Source: a virus
Direction: 5' to 3' (one strand)
Length of the DNA: 64,000 bases
IMG/VR virus record: IMGVR_UViG_3300043137_000327
Span: 1 to 64,000 of that record
The notes under the pieces were generated by a model. That model was not told the DNA's origin. It did no database searches and was given only the letters and a program-made list of their open reading frames with translations. Shown here piece by piece: positions 1 to 51,683 of this stretch. Numbering within the stretch: the first letter of the stretch is position 1; each line of letters starts with the position of its first letter. The position numbers were made by a program, and so were the translations under genes.

Positions 1-74
1 TGGTAATTAGCTCATTTGGTTAGAGCATCTCGCTGATACCGAGAAGGTGGCAGGTTCGAATCCCGCATTACCAA
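1..74 (+). tRNA. tRNA-Ile (anticodon GAT)
   Basis: Hand-folded cloverleaf: acceptor tggtaat/attacca (7 bp), D-stem gctc/gagc, anticodon stem tctcg/cgaga with loop ctGATac, T-arm gcagg-TTCGAAT-cccgc, discriminator A. Confidence 0.6.
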
Positions 75-165
75 CAAATAAGGTAATAGTTCCCAGAGTT
101 GATGTGGCCACATCCGGACTCAAAAAAAGTAAAGTTACAGATGGATGCGTAACGCCTTATTAATT

Positions 166-236
166 ACGGGTATGGTGCAATGGTAGCATACGGGTCTCCA
201 AAACCTTTGATGGAAGTTCGAATCTTTCTATCCGTG
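166..236 (+). tRNA. tRNA-Trp (anticodon CCA)
   Basis: Acceptor acgggta/tatccgt, D-stem gtgc/gcat, anticodon stem cgggt/acctt with loop ctCCAaa, T-arm ggaag-TTCGAAT-ctttc. Confidence 0.55.
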
Positions 237-241
237 CTAAT

Positions 242-313
242 AGTTCTATGGTGTAACGGATAGCACCCTTCACTACGGATGAAGAAGTTTGGGTTCGAAT
301 CCTAATAGAACTA
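242..313 (+). tRNA. tRNA-Arg (anticodon ACG)
   Basis: Acceptor agttcta/tagaact, anticodon stem cttca/tgaag with loop ctACGga, T-arm ttggg-TTCGAAT-cctaa. Confidence 0.55.
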
Positions 314-319
314 CATAAT

Positions 320-389
320 GGTCAGTTTGGTCGTGGAGGCCGGTGGGTCTGCAAAACTTACGGAGTTGGTTCGATTCCAACATTGACCT
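320..389 (+). tRNA. tRNA-Cys (anticodon GCA)
   Basis: Acceptor ggtcagt/attgacc (one GU), anticodon stem tgggt/actta (two GU, or 6-bp extended) with loop ctGCAaa, T-arm gttgg-TTCGATT-ccaac. D-arm is short/atypical. Confidence 0.45.
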
Positions 390-456
390 CAACCGGTGAA
401 GGATATTGGATATATCGCCCGACGTGGAGTTGGGAAAGTGGTTCGATTCCACAAAC

Positions 457-526
457 TGCATGGCTTAGTGGAAAAGAGTTATCTCTCATAAGGATGACCA
501 AATGAGTTCGAACCTCATACATGCAA
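457..526 (+). tRNA. tRNA-Met/Ile2 (anticodon CAT). D-arm atypical and boundaries uncertain
   Basis: Anticodon stem tatct/ggatg with loop ctCATaa, T-arm atgag-TTCGAAC-ctcat, acceptor tgcatgg/acatgca (6 of 7 pairs). The D-region is shorter than canonical. Confidence 0.4.
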
Positions 527-594
527 CAATGTATATTATACTATACAAAAACCTGGTATTTAGGGGTAAATGTATAATATATTATACGAAATAT

Positions 595-668
595 GGTGTT
601 TATAGTGTTAATGGTTAGCACGTCAGTTTGTGGTACTGATAGTATGGGTTCGAATCCCATTAATCACC
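595..668 (+). tRNA. tRNA-His (anticodon GTG) with G-1
   Basis: Anticodon stem tcagt/actga (perfect) with loop ttGTGgt, T-arm atggg-TTCGAAT-cccat, acceptor gtgttta/taatcac, plus an extra 5' G (595) pairing with discriminator C668 as expected for tRNA-His. Confidence 0.6.
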
Positions 669-673
669 CCAAT

Positions 674-759
674 AGAGAGTTACCCAAGTTGGTGAAGGGG
701 CCTGTTTGCTAAACAGGTAGGATGTTAAAGTCGCAAGGGTTCGAGCCCCTTACTCTCTA
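674..759 (+). tRNA. tRNA-Ser (anticodon GCT), class II
   Basis: Acceptor agagagt/actctct (perfect), anticodon stem cctgt/acagg with loop ttGCTaa, long variable arm (about 19 nt), T-arm aaggg-TTCGAGC-ccctt. Confidence 0.6.
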
Positions 760-768
760 CTTAAAATT

Positions 769-843
769 GCCCGTATGGCGGAATTGGAATACGCAGTGGC
801 TTTAGACACCACACAATTGAAGGTTCGAGTCCTTCTATGGGTA
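769..843 (+). tRNA. tRNA with anticodon TAG (Leu-decoding) but a class-I short variable arm. The anticodon loop could also be read as 9 nt
   Basis: Acceptor gcccgta/tatgggt (all paired, 2 GU), D-stem gcg/cgc, anticodon stem gtggc/accac (C-A mismatch at loop end) with loop ttTAGac, 6-nt variable region, T-arm gaagg-TTCGAGT-ccttc, discriminator A. Confidence 0.4.
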
Positions 844-1310
844 CAAAATTTATAACTATGGTTTACAAAAAACTAACAGGTGAAAGTGTAGAATTGGAAG
901 AATATATTACAAATTATATAGATATGTATGATGATGTTGATATACTTATTGGATGTGATTCACAAAATCGTGCTGATAAAACGACATACGCCGTAGTAGT
1001 TGCTTTGTATCATAGAGGTAAAGGAGCACACGTATTATTCAGAAGATGGCAAACTAAAAAAGAATGGACTCGTTCTACTCGTTTGTTAAATGAAGTATGG
1101 TACGCTATTGAAACGGCAGAGATGATGAAGGAAGCAGGTATTCCGAAACCTCGTTGGATTGATGTGGATTTGAACCCAGACCCTAGATATAAATCTAACG
1201 AAGTATTCAGACAGGCGGTTGGTATGGTTGAAGGTATGGGATATGAAGTTAGATATAAAACATTAGGTCCAATCGCAACATATGCGGCTGACCATTTAGT
1301 AAAAATGTAA
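837..1310 (+). CDS. hypothetical protein, possibly RNase H-like (YkuK/DUF458-like)
   Basis: 157-aa ORF. The segment ILIGCDSQNRADKTTYAVVVALYHRGKGAHVLF resembles the GTDSQ core of the DUF458 RNase H-fold family. The start overlaps the 3' end of the preceding tRNA by a few nt. Confidence 0.35.
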   Translation: MGTKFITMVYKKLTGESVELEEYITNYIDMYDDVDILIGCDSQNRADKTTYAVVVALYHRGKGAHVLFRRWQTKKEWTRSTRLLNEVWYAIETAEMMKEAGIPKPRWIDVDLNPDPRYKSNEVFRQAVGMVEGMGYEVRYKTLGPIATYAADHLVKM

Positions 1311-1387
1311 AAAAATATTAGGAAATTTGAAAAACTTTCTGTATATTTGTATAAGTTCTTTGATAGATAGGTATTTAAAAAGCAAAC

Positions 1388-1461
1388 GCTCCGTTCGTCT
1401 AATTGGTTAGGACACTCCCCTTTCACGGGAGAGCTTACGGGTTCGAGCCCCGTACGGAGTA
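1388..1461 (+). tRNA. tRNA-Glu (anticodon TTC)
   Basis: Acceptor gctccgt/acggagt (G1-U72), D-stem gtct/ggac, anticodon stem ctccc/gggag with loop ctTTCac, T-arm acggg-TTCGAGC-cccgt. Confidence 0.55.
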
Positions 1462-1559
1462 CAAAAGATTAATGTAAATCGCCTATGTGGGTGAAACTAA
1501 TTCCTCGTTTGGGGAAAAGAAGATGTGATTTCTTTAATAGGTGTAGTTAATCTTTAATT

Positions 1560-1632
1560 GCCTCCGTAGCTCATTTGGTAGAGCAGCTGATTTGTAATCA
1601 GCAGGTGGTTGGTTCGAGCCCGACCGGAGGCT
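1560..1632 (+). tRNA. tRNA-Thr (anticodon TGT)
   Basis: Acceptor gcctccg/cggaggc (perfect), D-arm tagctcatttggtagagca, anticodon stem gctga/tcagc with loop ttTGTaa, T-arm gttgg-TTCGAGC-ccgac. Confidence 0.65.
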
Positions 1633-1636
1633 CAAT

Positions 1637-1710
1637 GGGATGTTAGTAGAGTTGGTTACAATGTCGCCCTGTCACGGCGAAGGTCACGGGTTCGAGTCCC
1701 GTACATCCCG
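1637..1710 (+). tRNA. tRNA-Asp (anticodon GTC)
   Basis: Acceptor gggatgt/acatccc (perfect), anticodon stem tcgcc/ggcga with loop ctGTCac, T-arm acggg-TTCGAGT-cccgt, discriminator G. Confidence 0.6.
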
Positions 1711-1715
1711 CATAT

Positions 1716-1789
<74 letters not shown>

Positions 1790-1807
1790 CTAACAAAAGA
1801 AAAGCGT

Positions 1808-2245
1808 ATGAGCATATTAATCAGAACTTTATTTTGTATCTTTGTAATGATGCCAGCAAGTGTTAGTAAATTTGATGGTAGAAAGTTTGAGGTTGAAAAG
1901 GAAAAAGAGGAAGTTGTTGTAAAGAAACAAAATGCACTTATAGTAACGGCAACAACCTATACTGTAAGTGAATCAGAAACCGATAGTTCACCAACCATAA
2001 CGGCTAGTGGATTTAGGTTAAGTAAAACAAATCCTAAAAAGCACAGGGTAATAGCTGTGAGTAGAGATTTAAAAAAGAAACTTAGATTTGGAGATAAGGT
2101 AAGAGTTACCGGAATTGGAAAACTAAGTGGTGTATATGTAGTTAGAGATTTGATGCATAGTAGGTGGAGAAAGAAAATTGATATTTTAATCAATCCGAAA
2201 GATAAACAAACTAAGTTTCATAAAGTTAAACTTTACATATTATAA
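1808..2245 (+). CDS. 3D-domain protein (MltA-like cell-wall-binding/hydrolase-associated domain) with N-terminal signal/TM segment
   Basis: 145-aa ORF with a hydrophobic N-terminus. ATTYTVSESETDSSPTITASGFRL...HRVIAVSRDL...FGDKVRV...GVYVVRDLMHSRWRKKIDIL matches the 3D (Asp-rich) domain pattern ATAYT..G.TASG...IAVDP...G.Y.A.DTG..IDI. Confidence 0.5.
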   Translation: MSILIRTLFCIFVMMPASVSKFDGRKFEVEKEKEEVVVKKQNALIVTATTYTVSESETDSSPTITASGFRLSKTNPKKHRVIAVSRDLKKKLRFGDKVRVTGIGKLSGVYVVRDLMHSRWRKKIDILINPKDKQTKFHKVKLYIL

Positions 2246-2248
2246 GTT

Positions 2249-2333
2249 GCCTCGGTGGTGTAATGGTAGCCACGAAGGACTTAAAATCCTTTGAACCGAA
2301 AGGTTCGTGCCAGTTCGAGTCTGGCCCGAGGTA
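2249..2333 (+). tRNA. tRNA-Leu (anticodon TAA), class II
   Basis: Acceptor gcctcgg/ccgaggt, anticodon stem aagga/tcctt with loop ctTAAaa, long variable arm tgaaccgaaaggttcg, T-arm gccag-TTCGAGT-ctggc, discriminator A. Confidence 0.6.
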
Positions 2334-2445
2334 CAATGTAATGATTCGAAAGAATAGCGGAACAGATGCTAAGAATGAAATGGAAACTTTTGAAACTCGT
2401 ACAAAGGAGTGGATTCGAAACAAACCGCACAGACATTACATTAAT

Positions 2446-2519
2446 GGGGATATAGCTCAGTTGGCTAGAGCATCTGCCTTGCACGTAGAGGGTCGTGGGT
2501 TCGAATCCCTCTATCTCCA
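2446..2519 (+). tRNA. tRNA-Ala (anticodon TGC)
   Basis: Acceptor ggggata/tatctcc with a G3-U70 pair (the Ala identity element), D-arm tagctcagttggctagagc, anticodon stem tctgc/gtaga with loop ctTGCac, T-arm gtggg-TTCGAAT-ccctc. Confidence 0.65.
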
Positions 2520-2571
2520 CTATCGTTGAAATAAACGATATTAGATTTTATCGTTAGATTAAACGATAATT

Positions 2572-2648
2572 GGACTTGTAGCTCAGTCGGTTAGAGCGCC
2601 GCACTCATAATGCGTAGGTCATAGGTTCGAGCCCTATCTGGTCCACCA
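2572..2648 (+). tRNA. tRNA-Met/Ile2 (anticodon CAT) with encoded 3' CCA
   Basis: Acceptor ggacttg/ctggtcc (one T-T mismatch), D-arm tagctcagtcggttagagc, anticodon stem ccgca/tgcgt with loop ctCATaa, T-arm atagg-TTCGAGC-cctat, discriminator A followed by CCA. Confidence 0.55.
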
Positions 2649-2706
2649 TAGTTAGAATAGTTTATCTTTTTTAAGTATTCTAATATTTATATAAAAGAAA
2701 AAAACT

Positions 2707-3108
2707 ATGAAAGGTAATTGTATAAATTGTGACAAAGAGTTTGATTATATGCCATCTCAAAAAAATGGTAAGTATTGTTCAAACAAATGTCAGGGTGAGT
2801 ACTCTGTAAAACAAAGATTTGTAAAGGGTAGTGTTTGGCATCATAATATGGCAATCTATCTTAAACGAATTAGAGGAAATAAATGTGAGGATTGTGGAAT
2901 CACAGAGTGGTTGGGACATGAAATTAGTATGCATGTAGACCATATTGATGGTGATAGAACAAATAATACTTATGATAATTTAAGAATACTTTGTCCTAAT
3001 TGCCATTCACAAACTCCAACATTCGCTAGTAGAAATGTTTCAGCCGAAGGTAAAAAGAAAATGGCTGAATCCGCTAGAAAGAATGGTAGGGGTCACAAGC
3101 GAAAGTAG
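2707..3108 (+). CDS. HNH homing-type endonuclease
   Basis: 133-aa ORF. Cys-rich N-terminus (CINCDKEF...CSNKC) and the HNH core HVDHIDGDRTNNTYDNLRILCPNCHS. Embedded in the tRNA array. The stop overlaps the 5' end of tRNA-Gly. Confidence 0.8.
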   Translation: MKGNCINCDKEFDYMPSQKNGKYCSNKCQGEYSVKQRFVKGSVWHHNMAIYLKRIRGNKCEDCGITEWLGHEISMHVDHIDGDRTNNTYDNLRILCPNCHSQTPTFASRNVSAEGKKKMAESARKNGRGHKRK

Positions 3109-3171
3109 CTCATTTGGTAGAGCATCACCTTGCCAAGGTGAGGGTAGCCGGTTCGAGCCCGGTCTTTCGCT
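3099..3171 (+). tRNA. tRNA-Gly (anticodon GCC)
   Basis: Acceptor gcgaaag/ctttcgc (perfect), D-arm tagctcatttggtagagc, anticodon stem tcacc/ggtga with loop ttGCCaa, T-arm gccgg-TTCGAGC-ccggt. Confidence 0.65.
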
Positions 3172-3227
3172 CAAATGGGCTTTAGTGGGAAGCCGCAAGA
3201 ACGATAGATGTTGTTCATCCACTAAAT

Positions 3228-3299
3228 GCGAGTATAGCACAATGGTTAGTGTTCCGGCCTTCCAAGTCGGAGATTTCGGTTCGAGTCCGAATACTCGCT
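3228..3299 (+). tRNA. tRNA-Gly (anticodon TCC)
   Basis: Acceptor gcgagta/tactcgc (perfect), D-stem gcac/gtgt, anticodon stem ccggc/gtcgg with loop ctTCCaa, T-arm ttcgg-TTCGAGT-ccgaa. Confidence 0.65.
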
Positions 3300-3380
3300 C
3301 AACTCAAGTACCCATACCGCCAACGATGGGCTAAGTTAGATACAATTCCGTATTGCGGGGAGTAGAATGCTTGAGAATTT

Positions 3381-3451
3381 TGCCTGATGGTGTAGCGGTA
3401 GCACAACTGTTTTTGGTGCAGTTAGGGTAGGTTCGAATCCTGCTCGGGTAA
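3381..3451 (+). tRNA. tRNA-Gln (anticodon TTG)
   Basis: Acceptor tgcctga/tcgggta (U1-A72 as in bacterial tRNA-Gln, two GU), D-stem gtgt/gcac, anticodon stem actgt/gcagt with loop ttTTGgt, T-arm gtagg-TTCGAAT-cctgc. Confidence 0.5.
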
Positions 3452-3461
3452 CAACAAAAAA

Positions 3462-3494
3462 CCTCACAATTATTTGGCAATGTGGGGTTTTTTT
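3462..3494 (+). terminator. Rho-independent terminator hairpin (cctcaca/tgtgggg + T7) closing the tRNA array
   Basis: 7-bp stem with an 11-nt loop followed by TTTTTTT. The loop and T-run overlap the -33/-7 elements of the next promoter. Confidence 0.6.
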
Positions 3495-3504
3495 CGTATA
3501 TTTA
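3473..3504 (+). promoter_or_regulatory. Bacteroidetes-type promoter, class A (TTTGGCAAT...TTTCGTATATTTA)
   Basis: TTTG at 3473-3476 and TAnnTTTA at 3497-3504 with about 20-bp spacing. Member of the repeated about 30-bp promoter family. Confidence 0.55.
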
Positions 3505-3522
3505 CGGAGTAAAATGTAAGTT

Positions 3523-4179
3523 ATGATAAACAATTTAAAGTTAATAAAGCCGTTACTAAACTTCGAAACGAAGGGTGACTTCTATATGCTATATGTTTTT
3601 AAACGTAAGAAGGACCAGCCTGAAGGTGAAAGGGATAATCATCAATCGGTAAGAACTATTAAAACTTATTGTATTGAGAGTATTGACCATTTAGAACGTA
3701 GATGGGATGAAGTAATTCAGATGTGTGAGATGTTTAAAGCAAGAGCATATATACACATTCAGAAACAAAATCATTTTGATGTAAGTTTGAATATGATGGT
3801 TACTCTCGCACAACGAATACAAGATGGTAACACAAATCAAAAAGGTTTATTCGATTCAGTAGTTGGTCAAATCAAAACGCAAGAGAAGAGATGGATTATT
3901 GATGTAGATGATATAAAAGATGCAAGTCCAATTATGATGGCGTATATTGATAATGAATGTAAACCATACGGTTCTAAAATTGAATCAATAATTCCAACAA
4001 AAAGTGGTCATCATTTGATTACTAAGAAATTTGATGTAATGGAATTTAAAAAAAAATATCCAAACATCGATATTCAGAAAAAGAATCCAACATTATTATA
4101 TTATCCAAATTCATTGGATTTAGAAAATAATAATTTGGAAACTATTAAAAAATTAAGAGATACTTTAAAAGAAGAATAA
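3523..4179 (+). CDS. hypothetical protein (first gene of the RNA-repair operon)
   Basis: 218-aa ORF immediately downstream of a class A promoter. No motif recognised confidently. Confidence 0.5.
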   Translation: MINNLKLIKPLLNFETKGDFYMLYVFKRKKDQPEGERDNHQSVRTIKTYCIESIDHLERRWDEVIQMCEMFKARAYIHIQKQNHFDVSLNMMVTLAQRIQDGNTNQKGLFDSVVGQIKTQEKRWIIDVDDIKDASPIMMAYIDNECKPYGSKIESIIPTKSGHHLITKKFDVMEFKKKYPNIDIQKKNPTLLYYPNSLDLENNNLETIKKLRDTLKEE

Positions 4180-4742
4180 TGAAAGTAATATTTTTAGACC
4201 ACGATGGTGTTATATGTTTATCCACAGAGTGGGGAGGTAGATTTAAGAAACAAAGAGAAGCAGGACGTAAACTAAGTCAATCAGTTGGTTCATTGCCAGT
4301 TCTTTCTCGATTTGATAATTTTAATAAGAAAGCAATCAATATACTAAATGAAATATTGGAAGAAACTAACGCTGAAATTGTTATCTCATCTGATTGGAAA
4401 CGATGGGCAAGTGTTGAGGAGATGGGTGAATATTATGAATCACAGGGAATCAAAAAGAAACCAATCGCCTTTACGAAAAACTTAGGTGATTGTGATGTAC
4501 CCGAAAACTTCATATGGTCACGACAATGGGATTTAGAACAATCTCGCTCATTGGAGATACTTCAATATCTTAGAGATAACAATGATATAACACATTGGGT
4601 TTCTATTGATGATTTGGATATGGGTAAGAATGGTGAGGATTGGAAAAACTGGGGGTTAGATAACTTCGTATTAACGCCTAAAAGTAGAGAAGGTATTAAA
4701 CAAAGTGGAATAAAAGAAAAGATTATAGAATTCTTAAAATAA
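4179..4742 (+). CDS. HAD-superfamily phosphatase (Pnkp 3'-phosphatase-like)
   Basis: 187-aa ORF. N-terminal HAD motif I FLDHDGVI (DxDG). Sits beside the kinase and ligase genes. Start overlaps the previous stop. Confidence 0.5.
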   Translation: MKVIFLDHDGVICLSTEWGGRFKKQREAGRKLSQSVGSLPVLSRFDNFNKKAINILNEILEETNAEIVISSDWKRWASVEEMGEYYESQGIKKKPIAFTKNLGDCDVPENFIWSRQWDLEQSRSLEILQYLRDNNDITHWVSIDDLDMGKNGEDWKNWGLDNFVLTPKSREGIKQSGIKEKIIEFLK

Positions 4743-4747
4743 GAGTT

Positions 4748-5401
4748 ATGAAAATAGTATTAGAAAAAGGACAGAAGTTATGGTTTACAAGTGATACACA
4801 CTACAACCATGCTAATATTTGTTCCGCTACAACAAAGTGGACAGACCCGGTGACTTGTAGAGAATTCAAAACATTAGAACATATGAACGCTCACCTCGTT
4901 GGTAACATCAACGAAATGGTCGGACAGGATGATATTCTATTTCACTTAGGTGATTGGAGTTTTGGTGGATTTGAAAGTATCGAACAATTCAGAAATCAAA
5001 TTGTTTGTAAAAACATTCACATCATTACAGGCAACCACGACCATCACATTGAAAACAACAGAGAAGGTTGTCAATCGCTTTTTGCTTCGGTAAACAAATA
5101 CCTAAACTTAAATGTGAAATTTCCAAATGGAAGTGGTGGATATGATGATATACGATTTGCTCTAATGCACTTTCCAATAGCAAGTTGGGATAATATGGCG
5201 AGAGGCGCTATCCATTTGCATGGGCACGTTCACTTTGAACCTAGGTTACGAATTGGTGCTGGAAAAATGATGGATGTGGGTGTGGATGGAAACGGATTGT
5301 ACCCAATTCAAATGAGTGAAGTATTGAGATTAATGAGAAACCAACCAATCAAAAGTATGTTCATATTTGACCATCACGAGATTGTGGAGAATTATAAGTA
5401 A
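4748..5401 (+). CDS. calcineurin-like metallophosphoesterase
   Basis: 217-aa ORF with the motifs FTSDTHYNH, LFHLGDWSFGG, ITGNHDHH and HLHGHVHF (metallophosphoesterase signature blocks). Confidence 0.7.
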   Translation: MKIVLEKGQKLWFTSDTHYNHANICSATTKWTDPVTCREFKTLEHMNAHLVGNINEMVGQDDILFHLGDWSFGGFESIEQFRNQIVCKNIHIITGNHDHHIENNREGCQSLFASVNKYLNLNVKFPNGSGGYDDIRFALMHFPIASWDNMARGAIHLHGHVHFEPRLRIGAGKMMDVGVDGNGLYPIQMSEVLRLMRNQPIKSMFIFDHHEIVENYK

Positions 5402-5402
5402 A

Positions 5403-5585
5403 ATGAAAAAGTGGATTTGTAAAATAATAGGTCACAAATACTCATATAATTTTGGGTGGATGCCCAATAAGTGTATATGTAATAGGTGTGGTATGAAATG
5501 GAAAAGCATTAGTAACCCATATTACATACCGGGTGAATCAAATCCATTAATAACCGATATGCATATTTGGATAGAAGATAAATAA
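5403..5585 (+). CDS. small Cys-rich (putative zinc-ribbon) protein
   Basis: 60-aa ORF MKKWICKIIGHKY...CICNRCGMKW starting at the ATG just after the previous stop. The ORF-track start at 5367 overlaps the upstream gene. Confidence 0.35.
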   Translation: MKKWICKIIGHKYSYNFGWMPNKCICNRCGMKWKSISNPYYIPGESNPLITDMHIWIEDK

Positions 5586-5591
5586 TAAATT

Positions 5592-6008
5592 ATGATACCA
5601 AAAATATTAACATTAGTAAGAGGGTTGCCAGGAAGTGGTAAAACGACATTCGCAAATACTATCACAAATGAATTTTCAGTATGTGAAGCTGATAAGTTTT
5701 TCTATGATAAGGAGGGAAACTATAACTTTGATAGTAATAAATTAACTGCTGCACATAAATGGTGTAGAGATGAGGTAGAAATGCGAATGAAAGATAATCA
5801 ACTTAATGAACAATTCTATCCGCATATTGTAGTATCCAATACATTCACCAAACGATGGGAAATGGATACATATTTTGGATTAGCAAAGCAATATGGATAT
5901 AGAGTTCATTCAATCATTGTTGAAAATAGACACGATGGTGATAATGTACATAATGTGCCAGAAGAAAAAATAAAACAAATGGCTAATAGATTTGAAATTC
6001 AATTATAA
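5592..6008 (+). CDS. pnk: polynucleotide 5'-kinase (T4 Pnk kinase-domain-like P-loop kinase)
   Basis: 138-aa ORF. Walker A [35 protein letters not shown] parallels T4 Pnkp [39 protein letters not shown] parallels T4 VPIDVLRSMYKSM. Confidence 0.75.
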   Translation: [138 protein letters not shown]

Positions 6009-6013
6009 AAGAA

Positions 6014-7159
6014 ATGGAAAATAATAATTCAGTTTGCTATGTAGCAACAATTAATGAAATCAAACCAATTGAAGGAGCTGATAACATTGAGTTAGCAGTA
6101 GTTGGTGGTTGGAATTGTATCACTAAAAAAGGTGAGCAAAAAATAGGTGATGAAGTTATCATCGCTACAACCGATGCCGTAATTCCGGAATCATTATCGG
6201 ATGAGATGGGAGTTACTAGCTATCTTCGTAAAGGTGGTAGAGTTAGGACTGTGAAATTAAGAGGTGTATATTCAGAATGTTTAATCATTCCAAATAAATT
6301 CTTACATGGTAGAAGTACTATCGGAGATTGGGATTTGAAAGAAGGTAGTGATTGTATGCATATTTTTGGTATTGTTAAATTTGAACCACCCGTAAAAATG
6401 GTTCAATTGGCAAGTGGTAAGAAAATCAGATACCAAGATAATCCAAACTTTCACGTATATTATAAGTTTCCAAACTTAAAGAATGTACCTGGAATGTTTA
6501 CTGAAGAAGATACGGTTGAAATCACTCGTAAAATTCACGGAACAAATGCCAGATATGGTATTGTTAGGAAACTTAAATTATCAGTTTGGCATAATATTAA
6601 GAAGTTCTTTGGATTTGGTAACAAATGGGATGAGTTCGAATTCGTAGTTGGTTCGCATAATGTTGAGAAAGGTTCAGATTCTAATGGATTCTACGATACA
6701 AACGTATGGTATGAAATCGATAAGAAATATGGTATCAAACAAAAGTTATGGGATTATGTTAAGAATGAAGATATGGATGTAGTTATCGGAGATGGTATCA
6801 CTTTATATGGTGAGATTTACGGAGCTGGAATCCAAAAGGGATACGATTATGGGTTGAGTGAGATTGAGTTCGTAGGATTCGATGTAAAGGAGGATGGTGA
6901 GTATTTAGACCCAATCAACTCTAAACTTTTAATCAAAGATATTTTGGAATTACCATATGTAGAGATTTTACACTTTGGTAGGTGGTCACAAGAAGTACAA
7001 GATAAGTATGTATTCAATAATTTCATTGAAGGTACTAAAGTGCCGGAGGAGGGTATTGTAATCAAACACCAATCTAAAGGTAGAGAGAAGATAGCAAAGG
7101 TAATAAATCCTGATTATTTAATTTTCGCTGAAAAACACAATGTTGGCGATTCTCATTAA
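6014..7159 (+). CDS. rnl: RNA ligase (T4 Rnl2-like nucleotidyltransferase) with N-terminal tRNA-binding OB-fold domain
   Basis: 381-aa ORF. N-terminus VATINEIKPIEGADNIELAVVGGWNCITKKGEQKIGDEVII resembles the Myf/EMAP-type tRNA-binding domain. Ligase motif I RKIHGTN (K-x-H-G), motif IIIa YGEIYGAGIQKG (T4 Rnl2 FGEFAGPGIQKN), motif IV PEEGIVIKH. Confidence 0.75.
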   Translation: MENNNSVCYVATINEIKPIEGADNIELAVVGGWNCITKKGEQKIGDEVIIATTDAVIPESLSDEMGVTSYLRKGGRVRTVKLRGVYSECLIIPNKFLHGRSTIGDWDLKEGSDCMHIFGIVKFEPPVKMVQLASGKKIRYQDNPNFHVYYKFPNLKNVPGMFTEEDTVEITRKIHGTNARYGIVRKLKLSVWHNIKKFFGFGNKWDEFEFVVGSHNVEKGSDSNGFYDTNVWYEIDKKYGIKQKLWDYVKNEDMDVVIGDGITLYGEIYGAGIQKGYDYGLSEIEFVGFDVKEDGEYLDPINSKLLIKDILELPYVEILHFGRWSQEVQDKYVFNNFIEGTKVPEEGIVIKHQSKGREKIAKVINPDYLIFAEKHNVGDSH

Positions 7160-8142: not shown

Positions 8143-8228
8143 GGAAGGATGGCAGAGTTGGTCTATCGCGCTTGACTTGAAATCAAGTGTACTGAAAGGT
8201 ACCGTGGGTTCGAATCCTACTCCTTCCG
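8143..8228 (+). tRNA. tRNA-Ser (anticodon TGA), class II
   Basis: Acceptor ggaagga/tccttcc (perfect), anticodon stem cttga/tcaag with loop ctTGAaa, long variable arm, T-arm gtggg-TTCGAAT-cctac, discriminator G. Confidence 0.6.
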
Positions 8229-8434
8229 CAAAAATAAATTGTAGTGTGTTGGAAAATGATTTGTACGTGTGCAAATCTGGCAGACAAGCCCTCCTGTCTC
8301 GGGGGTGATGAGTACGAAATAGGTTAGTAATATGGGGTAGACCACCAAGCCGGCCGGCGGATGTTACTAACTGAATCGCATCGTGGATGGTTCGAATCCT
8401 CCCATTACAGCTAAATCTTTATCTTATCATCATT

Positions 8435-14404: not shown

Positions 14405-15328
14405 ATGGCGTATGATATGCAAGATGTTTGGGCACAAAGACAGGCTGAAATCGAAAGAGAACGAGAACAATTAAAAGTAGAACAACAATTAAAAATTAAA
14501 CAAATGATTAAGAAAATTTTAGTAGGTATTGGAGCATTTATCGGATTAGTAGTATTATTTAATTCGTGTGAAAGAATTGATGCAGGACACGTTGGTGTTA
14601 AGGTCAATCAGTATGGTGATAATAAAGGTGTAGATGATGTAGTAGCAGTTACAGGTATGGTATTTTATAATCCACTTACAACTGCCATTTATGAGTTCCC
14701 TACATTTATTCAACATAAGGAATACAAAGGAGAGAATTCATTCATCGTAAATAGTAAGGATGGTTCGGAATTTAATGTATCACCTATTATGAACTATTCA
14801 GTACAAAGGGATAAAGTACCGGCAATCTTTAGTAAGTATCGTAGACCTTTGGAAGATATCGAAGAAGGATTCTTAAAGACCGCAGTGTATGATGCATTCA
14901 GATTAGCAACTAACAAATATACGGCTGATGAATTGATTAGTAATAGAGCAGTATTTGAAATCGAAGTTCGTAGATTATTAGATGGGCAGTTATTAAAGGA
15001 GGGATTTGTAATCAATCAGTTCACATCGAATTTGATTTACCCTGAAACCTTTAAGAAATCTATTGAGGCTAAGAACAACGCAGTTCAGGCAGCATTGAGA
15101 GCAGAGAACGAAGTTAAAACGGCTGAAGCACAAGCGAAGATTAAAGTAGCAACCGCAGAAGGTAATGCACAGGCGATGTTAACATCAGCAAAAGCTGAAG
15201 CTGAATCAAATAGAATGAAGCAACAAACCCTAACACCATTGTTATTACAATTGGAGTACATCAACAAATGGGATGGTAAGTTGCCAGTTTATGGTGAAGT
15301 ACCACAAATGTTTAAGAACATTAAATAA
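14405..15328 (+). CDS. SPFH/band-7 (prohibitin/HflK-like) membrane protein
   Basis: 307-aa ORF with an N-terminal TM helix. The C-terminal Ala/Glu-rich coiled segment AALRAENEVKTAEAQAKIKVATAEGNAQAMLTSAKAEAESNRMKQ is typical of SPFH-domain proteins. Confidence 0.65.
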   Translation: MAYDMQDVWAQRQAEIEREREQLKVEQQLKIKQMIKKILVGIGAFIGLVVLFNSCERIDAGHVGVKVNQYGDNKGVDDVVAVTGMVFYNPLTTAIYEFPTFIQHKEYKGENSFIVNSKDGSEFNVSPIMNYSVQRDKVPAIFSKYRRPLEDIEEGFLKTAVYDAFRLATNKYTADELISNRAVFEIEVRRLLDGQLLKEGFVINQFTSNLIYPETFKKSIEAKNNAVQAALRAENEVKTAEAQAKIKVATAEGNAQAMLTSAKAEAESNRMKQQTLTPLLLQLEYINKWDGKLPVYGEVPQMFKNIK

Positions 15329-15371
15329 GATAGTTTGGAATGGAGTAGGGGTTCGATTCCCCTACTATCTT
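15327..15371 (+). ncRNA. tRNA-like acceptor/T-arm minihelix (no D or anticodon arms)
   Basis: aagata...tatctt outer stem enclosing gtagggg-TTCGATT-cccctac (7-bp stem, canonical T-loop). Starts at the SPFH stop codon. Confidence 0.4.
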
Positions 15372-15394
15372 CAATAACATAAAATTTAAAACAA

Positions 15395-22345: not shown

Positions 22346-23980
<1,635 letters not shown>

Positions 23981-24066: not shown

Positions 24067-24300
24067 ATGAAATCAGAAAACCTAAAAAGAGAAATTAACG
24101 AAGGACATTATTTAGAATTAATGGATAGGTTATATGTGTTAGCATCCACATTACACGACCATTGTTTAGAACATCCATTAGCTGAATACGATGAAGAAAT
24201 TTACACATCCATAGAAACAGCTATTGAAGCAACCTATGATGCATATCAATTGGTAGGAAGTAAAGAATTTGAAAATGAAGATGAGAATAACGCACATTAG
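24067..24300 (+). CDS. hypothetical protein
   Basis: ORF 24031..24300 trimmed to the ATG at 24067 because 24031-24061 is the promoter. Confidence 0.4.
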   Translation: MKSENLKREINEGHYLELMDRLYVLASTLHDHCLEHPLAEYDEEIYTSIETAIEATYDAYQLVGSKEFENEDENNAH

Positions 24301-25057
24301 TGATACACATAATAAGCACAACCAACTCAATGGTTTATTGCCAGGCGGTGATTTGCTTATTCATAGTGGTGATATATCTTCATTGGGTAGGAAGAGAGAA
24401 GTTGAATCATTCATCAAATGGTTTAATGATATCGATAACTACACTCATAAAGTATTCATAGCAGGTAATCACGATATGTCTTTTGATTCTGAACAATTAA
24501 TGCAGACTAAAATTGATTACTTTGATGGTAAACGTTCTGTATGGGATACCGAAGGTAATGAGCACATTCCATCCGAAGGTAAGCCAGATTGGTTAAAGGA
24601 ATTATTAGGGATTCACTTACGCCCAAATGTTTCATATTTAGAAAATTCAGATATAACAATTGATGGGTTGAAAGTATGGGGTTCACCAATCACACCATCA
24701 TTTGGATATGGTTGGGCGTTCAACAAAGATAGGGGATATGATATAAACGAAGTATGGAATCTTATTCCAGATGATACTAAGATTGTTATTACTCACGGAC
24801 CTATTCATAGCTATTGTGATAGAACTGATAGAGGTGGATTGAATGTTGGATGCGAACAACTATACCATAAATTGAATGAAGTTAAACCTCAATTACATTT
24901 TTCAGGCCACATTCACGAGGCATATGGATATAGGAATACTAAATGGGGATACGCATTTAATGGATGTAATTGCGATTTGAGTTATTTGGTAAATAACAAA
25001 CCAATGACTTTTGATTATGATTTTGTAAAAAACGATATAGTAGAATTTTTAATGTAA
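24269..25057 (+). CDS. calcineurin-like metallophosphoesterase (true start probably the ATG at 24281)
   Basis: Motifs ITHISDTHNKHN, LLIHSGDISSLGR, FIAGNHDMSF, ITHGPIH and FSGHIHEAYG. Confidence 0.65.
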   Translation: MKMKMRITHISDTHNKHNQLNGLLPGGDLLIHSGDISSLGRKREVESFIKWFNDIDNYTHKVFIAGNHDMSFDSEQLMQTKIDYFDGKRSVWDTEGNEHIPSEGKPDWLKELLGIHLRPNVSYLENSDITIDGLKVWGSPITPSFGYGWAFNKDRGYDINEVWNLIPDDTKIVITHGPIHSYCDRTDRGGLNVGCEQLYHKLNEVKPQLHFSGHIHEAYGYRNTKWGYAFNGCNCDLSYLVNNKPMTFDYDFVKNDIVEFLM

Positions 25058-25350
25058 TGAAAAAAATAATGATAGTGCTAATGTTATTGGGAGTGATAGC
25101 ATTGGAAGCAAAGCCAAAGTATAGAATAGAAACTTGGGTTTACAATGGCGAAAGATATTATCAACCACAGCAAAGAGTGTGGTATAAAACTAATTATTTT
25201 TATTTACCATTTAAAATATGGAAAGCCGGACAATATCCATTAAAGAGTAAAAATGAAGCTGAGTGGATTATTCAAAATTGGGAAAATGAATACCAAGCAA
25301 AAAGAGATTATAAACATTCTCAATTTATAGAAATAGATGAAAAAAGATAA
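25057..25350 (+). CDS. hypothetical secreted protein (signal peptide)
   Basis: 97-aa ORF with a hydrophobic N-terminal leader. Confidence 0.4.
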   Translation: MKKIMIVLMLLGVIALEAKPKYRIETWVYNGERYYQPQQRVWYKTNYFYLPFKIWKAGQYPLKSKNEAEWIIQNWENEYQAKRDYKHSQFIEIDEKR

Positions 25351-25816
25351 AATATATTTGTATTTGGATGATGTTCGAATACCAACAGAAGGAAAGTGGG
25401 AAGTGGTTAAAAATTATGATGAGTTTGTAGCTCACATTAATTTGAATGGATTGGAAAACTATGAACTTATTTCATTAGACCACGATTTAGGAGAAGCTGC
25501 TATGATTGAATATTATAGTAATGTTAAGCCAAATTATGAATTAGATTATAAAAGGATTGATGAAAAGACTGGTATGGATTGTGCAAGATTTTTAGTTGCA
25601 GAAGCTATGAATAAGAAGATACAATTACCAACGGTATATGTTCATTCCGCTAATCCAATTGGTTCGGCTAATATGATGGGATATATTAACAACTATTTCA
25701 GAAATAATAAATTGCCAGAAACGTGTACGAAAGTAAATATAGAGCACACTTATACTGAATTTTTATCTGAAGAGGAAAGGAATAGCCGATATAATATTAT
25801 GAAACAATATAAATAA
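25337..25816 (+). CDS. hypothetical protein
   Basis: 159-aa ORF. Confidence 0.45.
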   Translation: MKKDKIYLYLDDVRIPTEGKWEVVKNYDEFVAHINLNGLENYELISLDHDLGEAAMIEYYSNVKPNYELDYKRIDEKTGMDCARFLVAEAMNKKIQLPTVYVHSANPIGSANMMGYINNYFRNNKLPETCTKVNIEHTYTEFLSEEERNSRYNIMKQYK

Positions 25817-36047: not shown

Positions 36048-36073
36048 TAAAGAGGGGGCATCCCCCCCTATAA

Positions 36074-36144
36074 GCGGTGGAAGTGTAATGGTTGCACACC
36101 TGGCGTCCAGCTAGGAGGAGGTGGTTCGAATCCACACCGCCGCT
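36074..36144 (+). tRNA. atypical tRNA-like gene (TCC/Gly-like anticodon loop cgTCCag with G instead of U at position 33). Possible pseudo-tRNA
   Basis: Acceptor gcggtgg/ccgccgc, D-stem gtgt/gcac, anticodon stem cctgg/ctagg, T-arm ggtgg-TTCGAAT-ccaca. Flanked by GC hairpin 36052-36069 upstream and terminator 36215-36244 downstream. Confidence 0.4.
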
Positions 36145-36214
36145 CAACGCAATTCGGTATATTTGGTTATTCTCTGATTGATTGATTTACATTTACACAA
36201 AGCGTTACATTAGA

Positions 36215-36244
36215 AGATGGTCACACCGAATGACCATCTTTTTT
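36215..36244 (+). terminator. Rho-independent terminator (agatggtca / tgaccatct + T-run)
   Basis: 9-bp perfect stem, 7-nt loop, TTTTTT. Confidence 0.7.
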
Positions 36245-36264
36245 ATTTTAAAACTGACAAACAT

Positions 36265-40262: not shown

Positions 40263-40565
40263 ATGAATGTTAGTGTTTTGAATAAGTTAGAAAAAGGTTG
40301 GATATCATTGGATTGGTCTATATACTTAGTCAGAATGAATCTAACTTCAAAGCAATTATCTGAATTAGTTGATAAGTTGGATAATTGGAAATCTAATAAA
40401 TCTTGCAAAAGTATAATATTAGTAAAGTATAAAGTATTACCGGCGTATATTATATTAAATCGAATCGACTTTAAAAAATTAGGGAAGTATTTGATGGATA
40501 CAATGGTAAAGAGAGAAATGTATGAAGAATGCGCTCGTTTACAATTAATGATGGATAAATTATGA
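40263..40565 (+). CDS. hypothetical protein
   Basis: 100-aa ORF. Confidence 0.4.
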   Translation: MNVSVLNKLEKGWISLDWSIYLVRMNLTSKQLSELVDKLDNWKSNKSCKSIILVKYKVLPAYIILNRIDFKKLGKYLMDTMVKREMYEECARLQLMMDKL

Positions 40566-41803
40566 AAAATGTTGTTATAGTTGGCGGAGGTACAGCCGGT
40601 TGGTTAACCGCCTTAGTAGTAAATAAATTTTGGAAAGATACTAATGTTACTCTAATAGAGAGTTCTAAGATTGGTGTATTGGGAGCGGGTGAGGGTGGTA
40701 CTCCCAACTTTGGAAGAATGTTGAGTCTATTGGATATAAATCATAAAGAATTTTTTGAAAAAACAAATTCAACTGTAAAAGGTGGAATACATTTATTTAA
40801 TTGGACGGGTAATAATGAATTATCCAAACATTTATTTGTTGGAGAAGAGCCAAATAGATTTACCAAAAACTATGCATATCATTTTGATGCAAGGTTGGTA
40901 GCTGAATACTTTAAGAACGTTTCTATTAGTAGAGGAGTTAATTGGATTGATGGTGAAGTTGATACAATTAACAATATTGAAGATACAATTAAATCCATTT
41001 CGTTAAAAGATAATACTGTAATTGATTTGGATTTTATATTTGATTGTAGCGGATTCAGACGTATATTAATCGATGGTGTACATTCCGATGAATGGGTTGG
41101 ATATGAAAAATATCTAATGATGAATAAAGCATTCACATTCTTTTTACCACAATTCGATAAAAATATTGGCTATTCAAACACATATACTCATATGGTTTCG
41201 ATGAATTGTGGTTGGATGTTCCAAATACCATTACAACATAGATGGGGATGTGGATATGTTCATAATGATAATTATATCACAATAGATGAGGCTAAGAAAG
41301 AAGTGGAAAATTATTTAGGATATGAGGTAACTATACAAAAAACATTTGATTTTAAACCTGGTACCCACAAAAGAAGTTGGATTGGTAATTCAATATCAAT
41401 TGGATTATCTTATGGATTTATAGAACCATTAGAAGCAACTTCATTAATGTCTACCATTATGCAACTAAAAAGATTGATTGATATAGATTTTAATGAAGAA
41501 GCTAAAGATAGGTACAATGATTGGTGTTATCAAATAAATGAACAAAATTTAAACTTTATAAGATACCACTATCTATGCGAAAGAGATGATACTGATTTTT
41601 GGAAAGATTGTACATCCATGCCGTTGCCTGATAAATTGTATAAAATCTTAGATAAGAATAATTCGTTAATTCCAAAAAGTGATTCACAATTGTTGGATAT
41701 GTTGGAGTTGAAGGAATCTTCTGTCAATGAATTAACATTTTGTGTAAATAACTATTCTACAATTTTTATGAAAAATAAAAAACATAAAAACAAACTAATA
41801 TAA
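40562..41803 (+). CDS. flavin-dependent halogenase (tryptophan-halogenase family)
   Basis: 413-aa ORF. FAD-binding VIVGGGTAGWLTA and halogenase-type CGWMFQIPL (the GWxWxIP motif). Ends with KLI. Confidence 0.55.
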   Translation: MKNVVIVGGGTAGWLTALVVNKFWKDTNVTLIESSKIGVLGAGEGGTPNFGRMLSLLDINHKEFFEKTNSTVKGGIHLFNWTGNNELSKHLFVGEEPNRFTKNYAYHFDARLVAEYFKNVSISRGVNWIDGEVDTINNIEDTIKSISLKDNTVIDLDFIFDCSGFRRILIDGVHSDEWVGYEKYLMMNKAFTFFLPQFDKNIGYSNTYTHMVSMNCGWMFQIPLQHRWGCGYVHNDNYITIDEAKKEVENYLGYEVTIQKTFDFKPGTHKRSWIGNSISIGLSYGFIEPLEATSLMSTIMQLKRLIDIDFNEEAKDRYNDWCYQINEQNLNFIRYHYLCERDDTDFWKDCTSMPLPDKLYKILDKNNSLIPKSDSQLLDMLELKESSVNELTFCVNNYSTIFMKNKKHKNKLI

Positions 41804-50735: not shown

Positions 50736-51683
50736 ATGAATTTAGGTTACGCTTGTATTAATATGTCAATGGGTAAAAAAGTTACCACAAATCGTACTAT
50801 GGTTAAACGCACTTTCAATGAGAAGGGTTTGGATTATGTATCCGAACTTGCATTACTCAACGCAAAGGATGTTATCCGAATATTAGAATGGAATAGATTA
50901 AATAATATATATTTCTTTCGATTATCATCTGCTCTTATTCCTTGGGGCGATAATATTGATATTACTCAATTAAAAGATTACAACGCAATTAAATTCGAAT
51001 TGAAGAAAGCCGGTGATTACGCTAAACTTCATAATATTCGTATTACATCACATCCCGGCCCATTCAACGTATTAGTTTCACCAAGCGAATCGGTAGTTCT
51101 TAAAACTATCGCTGATTTAGAATTGCATGGTAAAGTGTTTGATATGATGGGATTATCTCAAACTCCATACAATAAGATTAATATCCATTGTAATGGTGTT
51201 TACGGAGATAAAAAATCTGCATTGGATAGATTCATCAAAAACTTCCAAAGACTCTCTAAATCGGTTCAAAATCGATTAACAATAGAGAATGATGATAAAG
51301 CATCTATGTACTCTGTTAAGGATTTAATGTATGTACATAATGCAATTGGTATTCCTATTGTATTCGATTATCATCACCACACATTTTGTACAGGCGATTT
51401 AACCGAACAACAGGCATTAGCACTCGCAGTATCGACTTGGCCTAAAGATATTACGCCGGTAGTACATTATTCGGAATCGAAAGCATTGCACGAAAATAAC
51501 GCAAAAGAAAAACCACAAGCTCACTCATTATACATTAATTCACTTCCTAATACATACGGATTGAATGTAGATATAATGGTTGAAGCCAAAGCTAAAGAAT
51601 TAGCTATATTACCTTATTTAAAAAACAAAATCAATGAAAAGAAAGTACGCAATGTTCATCGGGAGATGGCAGAATTGGCATAG
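50736..51683 (+). CDS. uvsE: UV DNA damage endonuclease (UvdE/UvsE)
   Basis: 315-aa ORF with strong block similarity to UvsE: RLSSALIPW (RFSSSIVP), ITSHPGPFNVL (TSFHPNQF), INIHCNGVYGDK (INIHIGGAYGNK), TIENDDKASMYS (TLENDDKTYT), VFDYHHH (VFDFHHF), DIMVEAKAKE (DFMIEAKQKD). Confidence 0.85.
   Translation: MNLGYACINMSMGKKVTTNRTMVKRTFNEKGLDYVSELALLNAKDVIRILEWNRLNNIYFFRLSSALIPWGDNIDITQLKDYNAIKFELKKAGDYAKLHNIRITSHPGPFNVLVSPSESVVLKTIADLELHGKVFDMMGLSQTPYNKINIHCNGVYGDKKSALDRFIKNFQRLSKSVQNRLTIENDDKASMYSVKDLMYVHNAIGIPIVFDYHHHTFCTGDLTEQQALALAVSTWPKDITPVVHYSESKALHENNAKEKPQAHSLYINSLPNTYGLNVDIMVEAKAKELAILPYLKNKINEKKVRNVHREMAELA

Follow-up and report, generated by a model that had tools for sequence, protein, structure and literature searches.

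In animal mitochondria, cleavage leaves mRNAs that end in U or UA, and polyadenylation completes the UAA codon. In the case of mascRNA/MALAT1 and MEN-beta, a tRNA-like fold at the transcript end is cleaved by RNase P and RNase Z, after which CCA is added. RNase P, RNase Z and the CCA-adding enzyme require of a substrate no more than a 12-base-pair (bp) acceptor/T stack that carries a T loop. In plant mitochondria, tRNA-like structures located between coding regions, the t-elements, are RNase P and RNase Z sites that make mRNA ends (PMC1920247). Other tRNA derivatives have left translation: the staphylococcal non-proteogenic tRNA-Gly(UCC) keeps the determinants of glycyl-tRNA synthetase (GlyRS), has a sixth anticodon-stem pair and a 5-base loop, and interacts weakly with EF-Tu (PMC7826273). 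Phage tRNA genes, for their part, are now viewed as weapons in a conflict with host defences that cleave tRNAs, and altered anticodon loops allow phage tRNAs to counter these defences (PMC10264068, PMC11464382, PMC11555353). Here we analysed a stretch of 64,000 nucleotides (nt) of viral DNA, positions 1 to 64,000 of IMG/VR record IMGVR_UViG_3300043137_000327 (the window), in which hairpins bearing a T-loop signature lie outside complete tRNAs. These hairpins are parts of four separate conserved tRNA-derived RNA elements of an uncultured jumbo phage lineage:

15327 to 15372, + strand: stand-alone acceptor/T-arm minihelix (covariance model R1, relatives, stop-codon overlap)
8240 to 8411, + strand: giant tRNA-Asp-like RNA, 171 nt to G73 (IMG/VR homologues, RNAalifold, covariance model R2)
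36074 to 36145, + strand: tRNA-Gly(UCC)-like gene with G33, the G33 gene (ARAGORN tRNA-Gly(tcc), Rfam tRNA score of 38.5 bits, 12 family members)
391 to 456, + strand: tRNA-like body that lacks an acceptor stem and is joined to the 3' end of tRNA-Cys (sequence, about 28 homologues)

The reading we favour, with moderate confidence, is that all four are selectively maintained, the minihelix as a tRNA-like punctuation of mRNA and the other three as non-decoding mimics.

The motif GGTTCRAWTCC has 13 matches in the window against 0.17 expected from shuffles, and the hairpins are therefore not due to chance. Its occurrences outside standard tRNAs are at 440-450, 8389-8399 and 15350-15360, the three places where an initial annotation had reported it with coordinates correct to 1-3 bases; the atypical gene contains it too, at 36123-36133. 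An independent search for T-arm hairpins returned 437-453 and 15347-15363 outside tRNAs, together with two weak matches (21084 and 43974) that are in line with a chance expectation of about 1.5. A reverse-strand T-loop-like match at 1166-1176, inside the open reading frame (ORF) at 837-1310, looks like chance. The annotation had spoken of minihelices; the term suits 15327-15372 only, the other two being the T arms of larger RNAs. In Rfam 15, the minihelix, the giant RNA and 391-456 had no family match, tRNA (RF00005, gathering score 29 bits) included, beyond a T-arm fragment, which was all that 391-456 returned. The tRNA covariance search that the annotation had proposed thus recovers, in local mode, the G33 gene alone (36074-36144, an atypical tRNA at 38.5 bits) and gives no full match for the others. 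These three elements also failed the tests of the known RNA families that could be run, and full-text searches on phage tRNA-like elements gave no description of them.

Conservation in related phages, which the annotation had named as a check, is clear, as all four elements recur in different samples: 53 distinct sequences were collected for the giant RNA, about 28 for 391-456, 22 for the minihelix and 12 for the G33 gene. All four types can also be found together on one contig, as in IMGVR_UViG_3300043410_001471 and 3300046787_000353. Given distinct sequences from different samples, it is unlikely that the homologues are all assembly duplicates of one genome. Family membership comes from exact-pattern scans, which bias the T stem and the core, and the E-values of models R1 and R2 are rough. 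Base-pair covariation is strong in three families and weak in 391-456. These data bear directly on the possibility that the elements are non-functional debris, namely tRNA pseudogenes, fragments left by recombination or homing endonucleases, or att-site-like 3' pieces of tRNA genes. Indeed, an HNH endonuclease gene and other inserted ORFs break the tRNA array of the window, 391-456 is present, truncated or absent in close relatives, and prokaryotic genomes commonly contain pieces of tRNA genes (PMC9897764). Nevertheless, we regard debris as highly improbable: the covariation largely refutes it, with compensatory changes in three families, each element exists in tens of distinct variants, and the fourth, 391-456, is more conserved than the tRNAs that adjoin it. 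Moreover, the minihelix possesses a 5' acceptor strand, unneeded in an att fragment, that covaries with the 3' strand, and its acceptor stem differs between closely related phages at one locus, which is incompatible with an att match to one host tRNA. The same recurrence and compensatory changes do not support the suggestion that the hairpins are remnants of tRNA turnover.

The minihelix reads A-AGATAGT-TTGGAATGGAGT-AGGGG-TTCGATT-CCCCT-ACTATCT-T-C and has no anticodon arm. Its parts, all on the + strand, and the gene that ends on it are as follows:

15327: A(-1)
15328-15334 with 15364-15370: acceptor stem
15335-15346: linker containing TTGGAA
15347-15351 with 15359-15363: T stem
15352-15358: T loop
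15371: U73
15372: C74
14405 to 15328, + strand: SPFH/Band 7 gene (Pfam Band_7, E=4.8e-21; ORF list)

The stop codon TAA of the SPFH gene occupies 15326-15328, and its last A is position +1 of the minihelix. The placement of a minihelix exactly at the stop of an SPFH gene was therefore right, for both the overlap and the identity of the gene. The register given for it (a 6-bp acceptor-like stem and a 7-bp T arm) was not, since the acceptor has 7 bp (or 8, counting A-1:U73) and the T stem 5 bp. Model R1 gives the minihelix 68.2 bits as the sole copy in the window, with the next match at 17.5, and it found no further copies in 686 kilobases of related loci. An IMG/VR pattern in which only the linker TTGGAA and the T arm were fixed, the acceptor being unconstrained, retrieved 48 loci, of which 37 form 6-7 of 7 acceptor pairs; all the others belong to variable arms of real tRNAs. 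In 185,579 cellular genomes the minihelix is essentially absent save for three short contigs, taken as phage-derived; 55 of the 58 matches were variable arms of true tRNA-Ser/Leu-type genes and were rejected.

In the alignment of the 22 distinct minihelices (A1), 98.3% of cells are paired against 52-69% in slid controls, a percentage, but not a stem diversity, that is inflated because the sequences were picked for at least 6 of 7 acceptor pairs. Both sides have changed at 8 of the 13 pairs, and within the T stem only the outer pair could covary because the pattern largely fixed this stem. The acceptor stems are unrelated between gene contexts yet complementary (AGATAGT, ATCATAT, ACTCAGT, AGCGTGA, ACTGTGT, GGTTAGT), and A-1:U73, C74, the GG of the linker and the T loop are invariant. 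At the SPFH locus itself, the compensatory changes include GATAGT/ACTATC to GATAAT/GTTATC, AATAGT/CTATT, and TAGGGG/CCCCTA to CAGGGG/CCCCTG.

The minihelix is always co-oriented with its flanking genes, and the next ORF usually lies 3-37 nt 3' of it. A long same-strand ORF stops exactly at -2 to +1 in the SPFH, L113 (head protein), L117 (HNH), L126 and L148 contexts (L numbers denote related loci), and at -13/-14 in the group with the AGCGTGA acceptor. The genes located 5' encode major head proteins (L120 group, L113; two other phage groups), an HNH endonuclease or a second type of SPFH protein. A Bacteroidetes-type promoter considered 5' of the L109-type minihelix was dropped, the motif being imperfect and not conserved. 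The 80 loci with SPFH homologues represent 55 distinct downstream contexts, of which 8 contain the minihelix, 20 a hairpin followed by a T-run and 27 neither; some relatives thus have a real hairpin and T-run at this position and no minihelix. The minihelix could then be a plain stable hairpin, acting as a terminator or an exonuclease block, whose tRNA likeness is historical and which involves no tRNA enzyme. It does stand where 20 of the 55 contexts have hairpin-plus-T-run terminators, it follows major head protein genes, and one long hairpin is the lowest-energy fold of several members. However, the T run that directly follows the G+C-rich hairpin of an intrinsic terminator is absent, TCAATAACATAAAATTT lying directly 3' and the trailer being TCAATAACATAAAA. 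Full termination would silence the next gene, which starts 23 nt downstream on the same strand. Furthermore, the T loop, the GG linker, the 7+5 bp geometry, A-1:U73 and C74 are kept across unrelated acceptors, and a hairpin needs none of them. A plain hairpin is therefore, in our opinion, rather improbable.

The 3' end of the minihelix resembles those of the tRNAs around it. In 18 of the 20 tRNA genes of the window (a listing that includes a sub-threshold tRNA(CAT) and the G33 gene), N73-C74 is followed by A or T, mostly as CAA, instead of CCA (for example 75-77, 390-392 and 1711-1713); CC follows N73 only in the tRNA-Met at 2572 and in tRNA-His. Several of these tRNAs begin with A1:U72 or U1:A72. 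This CCA-less N73-C74 style recurs in the minihelix, the giant RNA and the G33 gene. A 7-bp acceptor stem is present in each of these three and absent from 391-456.

From the existence, conservation, structure and context of the four elements we infer a set of enzymatic steps and functions, and we word them conditionally. The structural prerequisites of tRNA maturation (12-bp acceptor/T stack, T loop, GG linker, CCA-less N73-C74 trailer) are present in the minihelix. Host maturation enzymes could recognise it like a pre-tRNA, RNase P acting at its 5' side and RNase Z, or exonucleases, together with the CCA-adding enzyme at U73/C74, and the GG linker could mimic the D-loop/T-loop elbow. As a result, a polycistronic mRNA would be cut, or capped with a stable tRNA-like end, at the place where related phages have an ordinary terminator; stable 3' ends may be needed after head-protein genes. 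The base at -2 is usually U, which would be the base favoured by RNase P 5' of a helix if A-1:U73 is counted as the first pair. A punctuation or end-forming signal appears the best reading because of the 12-bp stack, the GG linker, the CCA-less trailer, the terminator-equivalent site and the placement after head-protein genes. The annotation had proposed mRNA end processing as a possible role; the comparative data (co-orientation, stop-codon contact, terminator-equivalent site, head-protein genes and N73-C74 trailer) fit it for 15327-15372 only, through a mechanism that would be the one outlined here.

The hairpin at 8386-8402 belongs to a much larger molecule. Its sequence ggatggTTCGAATCC is indeed present, at 8385-8399 after tRNA-Ser(UGA), but the statement that it lacks a cloverleaf was wrong: a 171-nt cloverleaf has this hairpin as its T arm and is organised as follows (+ strand):

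8143 to 8229, + strand: tRNA-Ser(UGA), directly 5' of the giant RNA here and in many relatives
8240-8246 with 8403-8409: acceptor stem, followed by U8 G9 and a 3-bp D stem
8258-8277: optional hairpin of the D loop
8289-8305: anticodon-like arm, loop CUGUCUC, with GUC at 8296-8298
8307-8382: Y-shaped variable arm of about 78 nt
8385-8402: T arm with a bulged U
8410: G73
8411: C74

A core pattern found 70 loci in IMG/VR, corresponding to the 53 distinct sequences of 149-178 nt. RNAalifold applied to 34 of them predicted 41 pairs, 21 with compensatory changes, which cover the 7-bp acceptor, a 5-bp hairpin with a 7-nt loop, the long Y-shaped arm and the T arm. The 3-bp D stem, missed by RNAalifold, covaries as well (10:25 is GC in 29 sequences, UA in 12 and AU in 7; 11:24 is UA in 46 and CG in 6), and the D loop of 9-36 nt may contain the optional hairpin. 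Model R2 scores the giant RNA at 166.9 bits; apart from this RNA itself, what it matches best is the canonical tRNA-Asp of the window (1637-1711), at 27.5 bits. This alignment runs through the acceptor, the GG of the D loop, the anticodon arm (CUGUCAC versus CUGUCUC) and the T arm, the 78-nt arm falling in the variable region. The strong determinants of aspartyl-tRNA synthetase (AspRS) are G73, G34, U35, C36 and C38 (PMC9976931). All five are invariant in the giant RNA (34-sequence alignment, with loop counts over the 53 sequences), as is G2:C71, while 1:72 is U:A instead of the bacterial G:C. The U33 and purine 37 of a decoding tRNA are not kept, since the loops (CUGUCUC, UCGUCUC, CAGUCCC, CCGUCUC) have U, C or A at position 33 and U or C at position 37. 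A blastn search returned nothing among 50,697 records of cultured phages. Several other structures were considered for this RNA and rejected. For a mini-tmRNA (tmRNA, transfer-messenger RNA) with a tag ORF, an in-frame TAA/TGA at GTAATA seemed kept, but L151 and L178 stop earlier, and the A/G change at GTAATA is accounted for by a G:U pair of the stem. A hammerhead-like CUGAUGAG...GAAA of the window's copy is not kept in relatives, and a pseudoknot AGACA/UGUCU is unsupported in L085-type sequences.

The third element is the atypical tRNA-like gene for which G33 had been reported, and this feature proved correct:

36104-36110, + strand: anticodon loop CGUCCAG (CGTCCAG in the DNA)
36105: G33
36106-36108: anticodon

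In its 12 distinct relatives every stem covaries, 98% of cells are paired, both sides have changed at 11 of the 21 pairs, and the loop CGUCCAG is unchanged, so that the U33 of decoding tRNAs is invariably replaced. The 38.5-bit score was obtained in a 141-base search, and the gene is missing from the gathering-threshold list of the whole window, presumably through speed filters; this calls for caution with atypical tRNAs in long scans. The glycine determinants G1-C72, C2-G71, U73, C35 and C36 (PMC9976931, PMC7826273) are invariant in 12 of 12 members, and G3:C70 is found in 11. C32 and G38 could pair, which would leave a 5-base loop GUCCA, and the pairs 49:65, 50:64 and 51:63, which contact EF-Tu (PMC3239215), are rich in G:U. 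The canonical tRNA-Gly of the window lies at 3228-3300. In relatives, the G33 gene heads the tRNA array, at times in two copies. At the same spot of the array, L102 has another atypical tRNA-like gene (1010-1082, called tRNA-??? by ARAGORN), which shares the D arm (GTGTAATGGTAGCAC) but whose stem has 6 bp and whose loop has 8 nt (TGGTGACT). In the window, the G33 gene is flanked by a G+C hairpin (GAGGGGGCATCCCCCCCT) at 36050-36070 and by a hairpin with T-run (GATGGTCACACCGAATGACCATCTTTTTT) at 36217-36247, and it may constitute its own small transcription unit apart from the main array.

The fourth element fills the space between two tRNA genes:

320 to 390, + strand: tRNA-Cys(GCA) (ARAGORN; Rfam 31.8 bits), the 5' neighbour in all homologous loci
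402-406 with 412-416: D-arm-like hairpin, loop TGGAT (GATAT-TGGAT-ATATC)
418-422 with 430-434: second hairpin, loop CGTGGAG (CCCGA-CGTGGAG-TTGGG)
438-441 with 449-452: T arm, loop TTCGATT (GTGG-TTCGATT-CCAC), with no acceptor stem
457 to 526, + strand: conserved but sub-threshold tRNA(CAT) (Rfam tRNA 24.4 bits against a gathering score of 29; not called by ARAGORN)

The hairpin gtgg-TTCGATT-ccac was thus correctly described as lying without a cloverleaf between tRNA-Cys and a CAT tRNA; it spans 438-452. The naming of the downstream gene as tRNA-Met holds as far as a tRNA(CAT) at 457-526, which scores below the gathering threshold. This gene, in which G7:A66 is a mismatch and the D stem has 3 bp, has copies 84-100% identical in 9 related loci, and ARAGORN calls a tRNA-Met(cat) at the same spot, directly after tRNA-Cys, in L081, L090 and L093; it could be a tRNA-Met or a lysidine-modified tRNA-Ile2. 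The roughly 28 distinct variants of 391-456 (viral and metagenome scans) all start in the U73-C74(-A75) trailer of tRNA-Cys and all lack the acceptor stem, while the gene 3' of them varies (several tRNA(CAT) types or tRNA-His). The loop of the middle hairpin is variable in sequence and length (CGUGGAG, CGUAGAG, CAUUAAG, CUUUAG...). The L088 copy of the element is 86% identical to that of the window, whereas the flanking tRNA(CAT) has no match in L088 and the flanking tRNA-Cys is, by eye, clearly more divergent. A distant or trans-acting acceptor strand was rejected, as the + strand of the window has no complement of the conserved 5' tail, and so was the 4-bp closing helix of the single-sequence fold, which is not kept in L088 or in short forms. 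The element is not a missing tRNA-Pro(UGG) either: relatives have a normal tRNA-Pro 5' of tRNA-Ile (off the left edge of the window), and the "anticodon" varies. By eye, the second hairpin and the T arm resemble those of the window's G33 gene (CGUNNAG loop, GUGG-UUCGAWU-CCAC-A), and the two elements may have a common origin.

Since these three elements keep synthetase or tRNA-binding features and have lost ribosome features, we read them as non-decoding mimics, that is charged donors, traps or decoys. The giant RNA would be a tRNA-Asp derivative that keeps the AspRS determinants, has lost purine 37 and no longer fixes U at position 33, and the G33 gene a paralogue of tRNA-Gly(UCC) that keeps the GlyRS determinants; both may be chargeable or bindable yet poor ribosome substrates. 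Normal processing of tRNA-Cys and of the tRNA that comes next could free the body at 391-456, as a bindable mimic. A narrower proposal is that all three act mainly as decoys or sponges, for host tRNA-targeting nucleases or for AspRS and GlyRS, and so shield the real phage tRNAs. The tRNA array contains a complete RNA-repair cassette, which hints at a conflict over tRNA cleavage:

4179-4742: HAD_SAK_2 ("Swiss Army Knife" RNA-repair HAD domain)
4748-5401: metallophosphatase
5592-6008: P-loop (AAA_33) kinase
6014-7159: RNA ligase

Besides this cassette (4179-7159), a second metallophosphatase adjoins a cyclic-phosphate-processing receiver-domain protein (25337-25816), within 24269-25816. The cassette and the cyclic-phosphate-processing protein suggest anticodon-nuclease pressure, the altered anticodon loops of known phage tRNAs (PMC10264068, PMC11464382, PMC11555353) offer a precedent, synthetase determinants are retained where decoding features (U33, R37, an open 7-nt loop) are lost, and the acceptor-less body cannot be charged. 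Yet the variable middle loop of 391-456 is odd for the bait of a sequence-specific nuclease, and G73 and the conserved 78-nt arm would be superfluous in a decoy. A mainly decoy role thus seems unlikely, although it deserves some weight.

A bolder version of the punctuation reading would make the whole set non-translational, with mitochondrion-style tRNA punctuation on one side and a charged, ribosome-excluded giant RNA and G33 tRNA on the other; we regard it as a long shot. RNase P would then cut within the UAA of the SPFH or head-protein gene and leave an mRNA ending in U or UA, whose stop codon could be restored by A-tailing, or which could be handled as a truncated message by the tmRNA of the relatives. 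The giant RNA, charged by AspRS, and the G33 tRNA, charged by GlyRS, might serve as amino-acid donors or as enzyme or nuclease traps.

Several observations weigh against the favoured reading of punctuation and mimics, in addition to the selection effects mentioned for the minihelix alignment. Thermodynamic support for the minihelix is moderate. Folding programs, which the annotation had named for a possible refutation, put the acceptor stem in the lowest-energy fold of 14 of the 22 minihelices, whereas an extended T hairpin is favoured over the acceptor/T-arm stack by 0.7-4.7 kcal/mol in the other 8, and single-sequence folding z-scores are modest (-0.8 to -2.4). If RNase P cut at the canonical site, the upstream gene would lose its stop codon, and this calls for a further explanation. 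In the giant RNA, the invariant GUC could reflect an internal loop-loop contact with an invariant GAC of the arm and not AspRS recognition. As for 391-456, 91.6% of cells are paired against 29-57% in slid controls but only 2 pairs have changed on both sides. This element is also dispensable, being absent from the close relatives L097, L094, L101 and L089 and present in others with a truncated middle hairpin.

The source of the window is an uncultured jumbo phage with a large tRNA array and no close cultured relative; a megablast search with 1-4000 matched individual tRNAs only. Its host is probably a member of the Bacteroidota, an indirect assignment made because the few minihelix copies in cellular assemblies sit on short contigs binned to this phylum. 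ARAGORN predicts 19 tRNA genes, 17 of them arrayed at 1-3452, one at 8143 and one at 36074, and Rfam confirms 18 at the gathering score over the whole window. Protein-guided searches led to many IMG/VR contigs of 100-290 kilobases with the same genes and arrays of about 24 tRNAs, the lineage carrying about 25 tRNA genes and an RNA-repair cassette; some of the relatives also encode a tmRNA (L087 193-566, L089 448-834, L090 455-810, L094 26-371), with the tags GEYNYAIAA and GVNNYALAA and longer tags ending in YAVAA. Among the ORFs that break the array of the window, 837-1310 encodes an RNaseH-like DUF458 protein (PF04308) and 2707-3108 an HNH endonuclease. The spacer between tRNA(CAT) and tRNA-His (527-595) contains two copies of an AT-rich near-palindrome (TGTATATTATAC... 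and TGTATAATATATTATAC) around CCTGGTATTTAGGGGTAAA, an arrangement kept in L098, L097, L101 and L102 and absent in L096, which may be a phage promoter or regulatory site. No phage-encoded RNase P, RNase Z or CCA-adding enzyme was found among the 47 distinct ORFs of the window that were scanned, a scan that is not exhaustive. The window also encodes a baseplate protein and auxiliary genes that are uncommon in phages:

22349-23980: GroEL
40562-41803: tryptophan-halogenase-like protein
50736-51683: UV endonuclease UvdE
52345-52980: peptide deformylase
53921-55615: Nol-like carbamoyltransferase

How do these elements compare with described RNAs? Like the tRNA-like domain of tmRNA, the giant RNA pairs its two ends into an acceptor stem, and it shares with that domain the T arm, a GG strand resembling a D loop and a long structured insertion. 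Unlike in tmRNA, 3:70 is U:A instead of G:U, there are no pseudoknots, and by eye no tag frame is conserved (stops in L151 and L178). ARAGORN found no tmRNA in the window and the Rfam tmRNA models match only a T arm of 15-17 nt; as the window begins within the tRNA array, a tmRNA of its own, if any, would lie off the left edge. The Rfam model of YrlA gave only weak matches, within ordinary tRNAs. The rnaC and rnaD of T4 (species 1 and 2) are small stable RNAs of unknown function located directly after a phage tRNA gene, like 8240-8411 and 391-456, and rnaC has a T-arm-like hairpin (CCGGGTTCGAATCCCGG) near its 3' end, as the phage elements do. They do not share the architecture of the giant RNA, are not obviously tRNA-Asp-like and are not matched by R2, and we therefore reject homology with the T4 RNAs. 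The G33 family has the same determinants as the staphylococcal tRNA-Gly, a C32:G38 pair that would give the GUCCA loop and G:U-rich EF-Tu contact pairs; it differs in keeping G18G19 and a normal T loop, and G33 has not been described in staphylococci. No Fem-type transferase was identified in the window. Like the phage tRNAs that escape anticodon nucleases (PMC10264068), the elements depart from the host norm in the anticodon loop; those tRNAs still decode, whereas the elements described here lack U33, the acceptor stem or the whole anticodon arm, and position 33, tRNA-Gly and tRNA-Asp are not mentioned in PMC10264068. Altogether, one widespread uncultured jumbo phage lineage goes beyond ordinary tRNAs, with four or more distinct tRNA derivatives maintained in it. 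Aspartylation of the giant RNA, if it occurs, would broaden the range of possible synthetase substrates.

The closest parallels to the minihelix are found in eukaryotes and their organelles. RNAs of the mascRNA type are eukaryotic nuclear RNAs with a fuller cloverleaf, and the Rfam mascRNA-menRNA model does not match the minihelix and gives only 15.1 bits on the G33 tRNA. Mitochondrial t-elements and tRNA punctuation differ from the minihelix in that the latter belongs to a phage of bacteria, occurs as a single copy per genome and not genome-wide, and bears no sequence relationship to them. The likeness includes position: in animal mitochondria the cut leaves U or UA of a UAA codon, and in at least five gene contexts of the phage minihelix the final base of UAA or UAG is also where the helix starts. 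If it is processed, it would represent a compact and portable RNA-processing tag and, to our knowledge, the first mRNA signal resembling tRNA punctuation in a bacterial virus.

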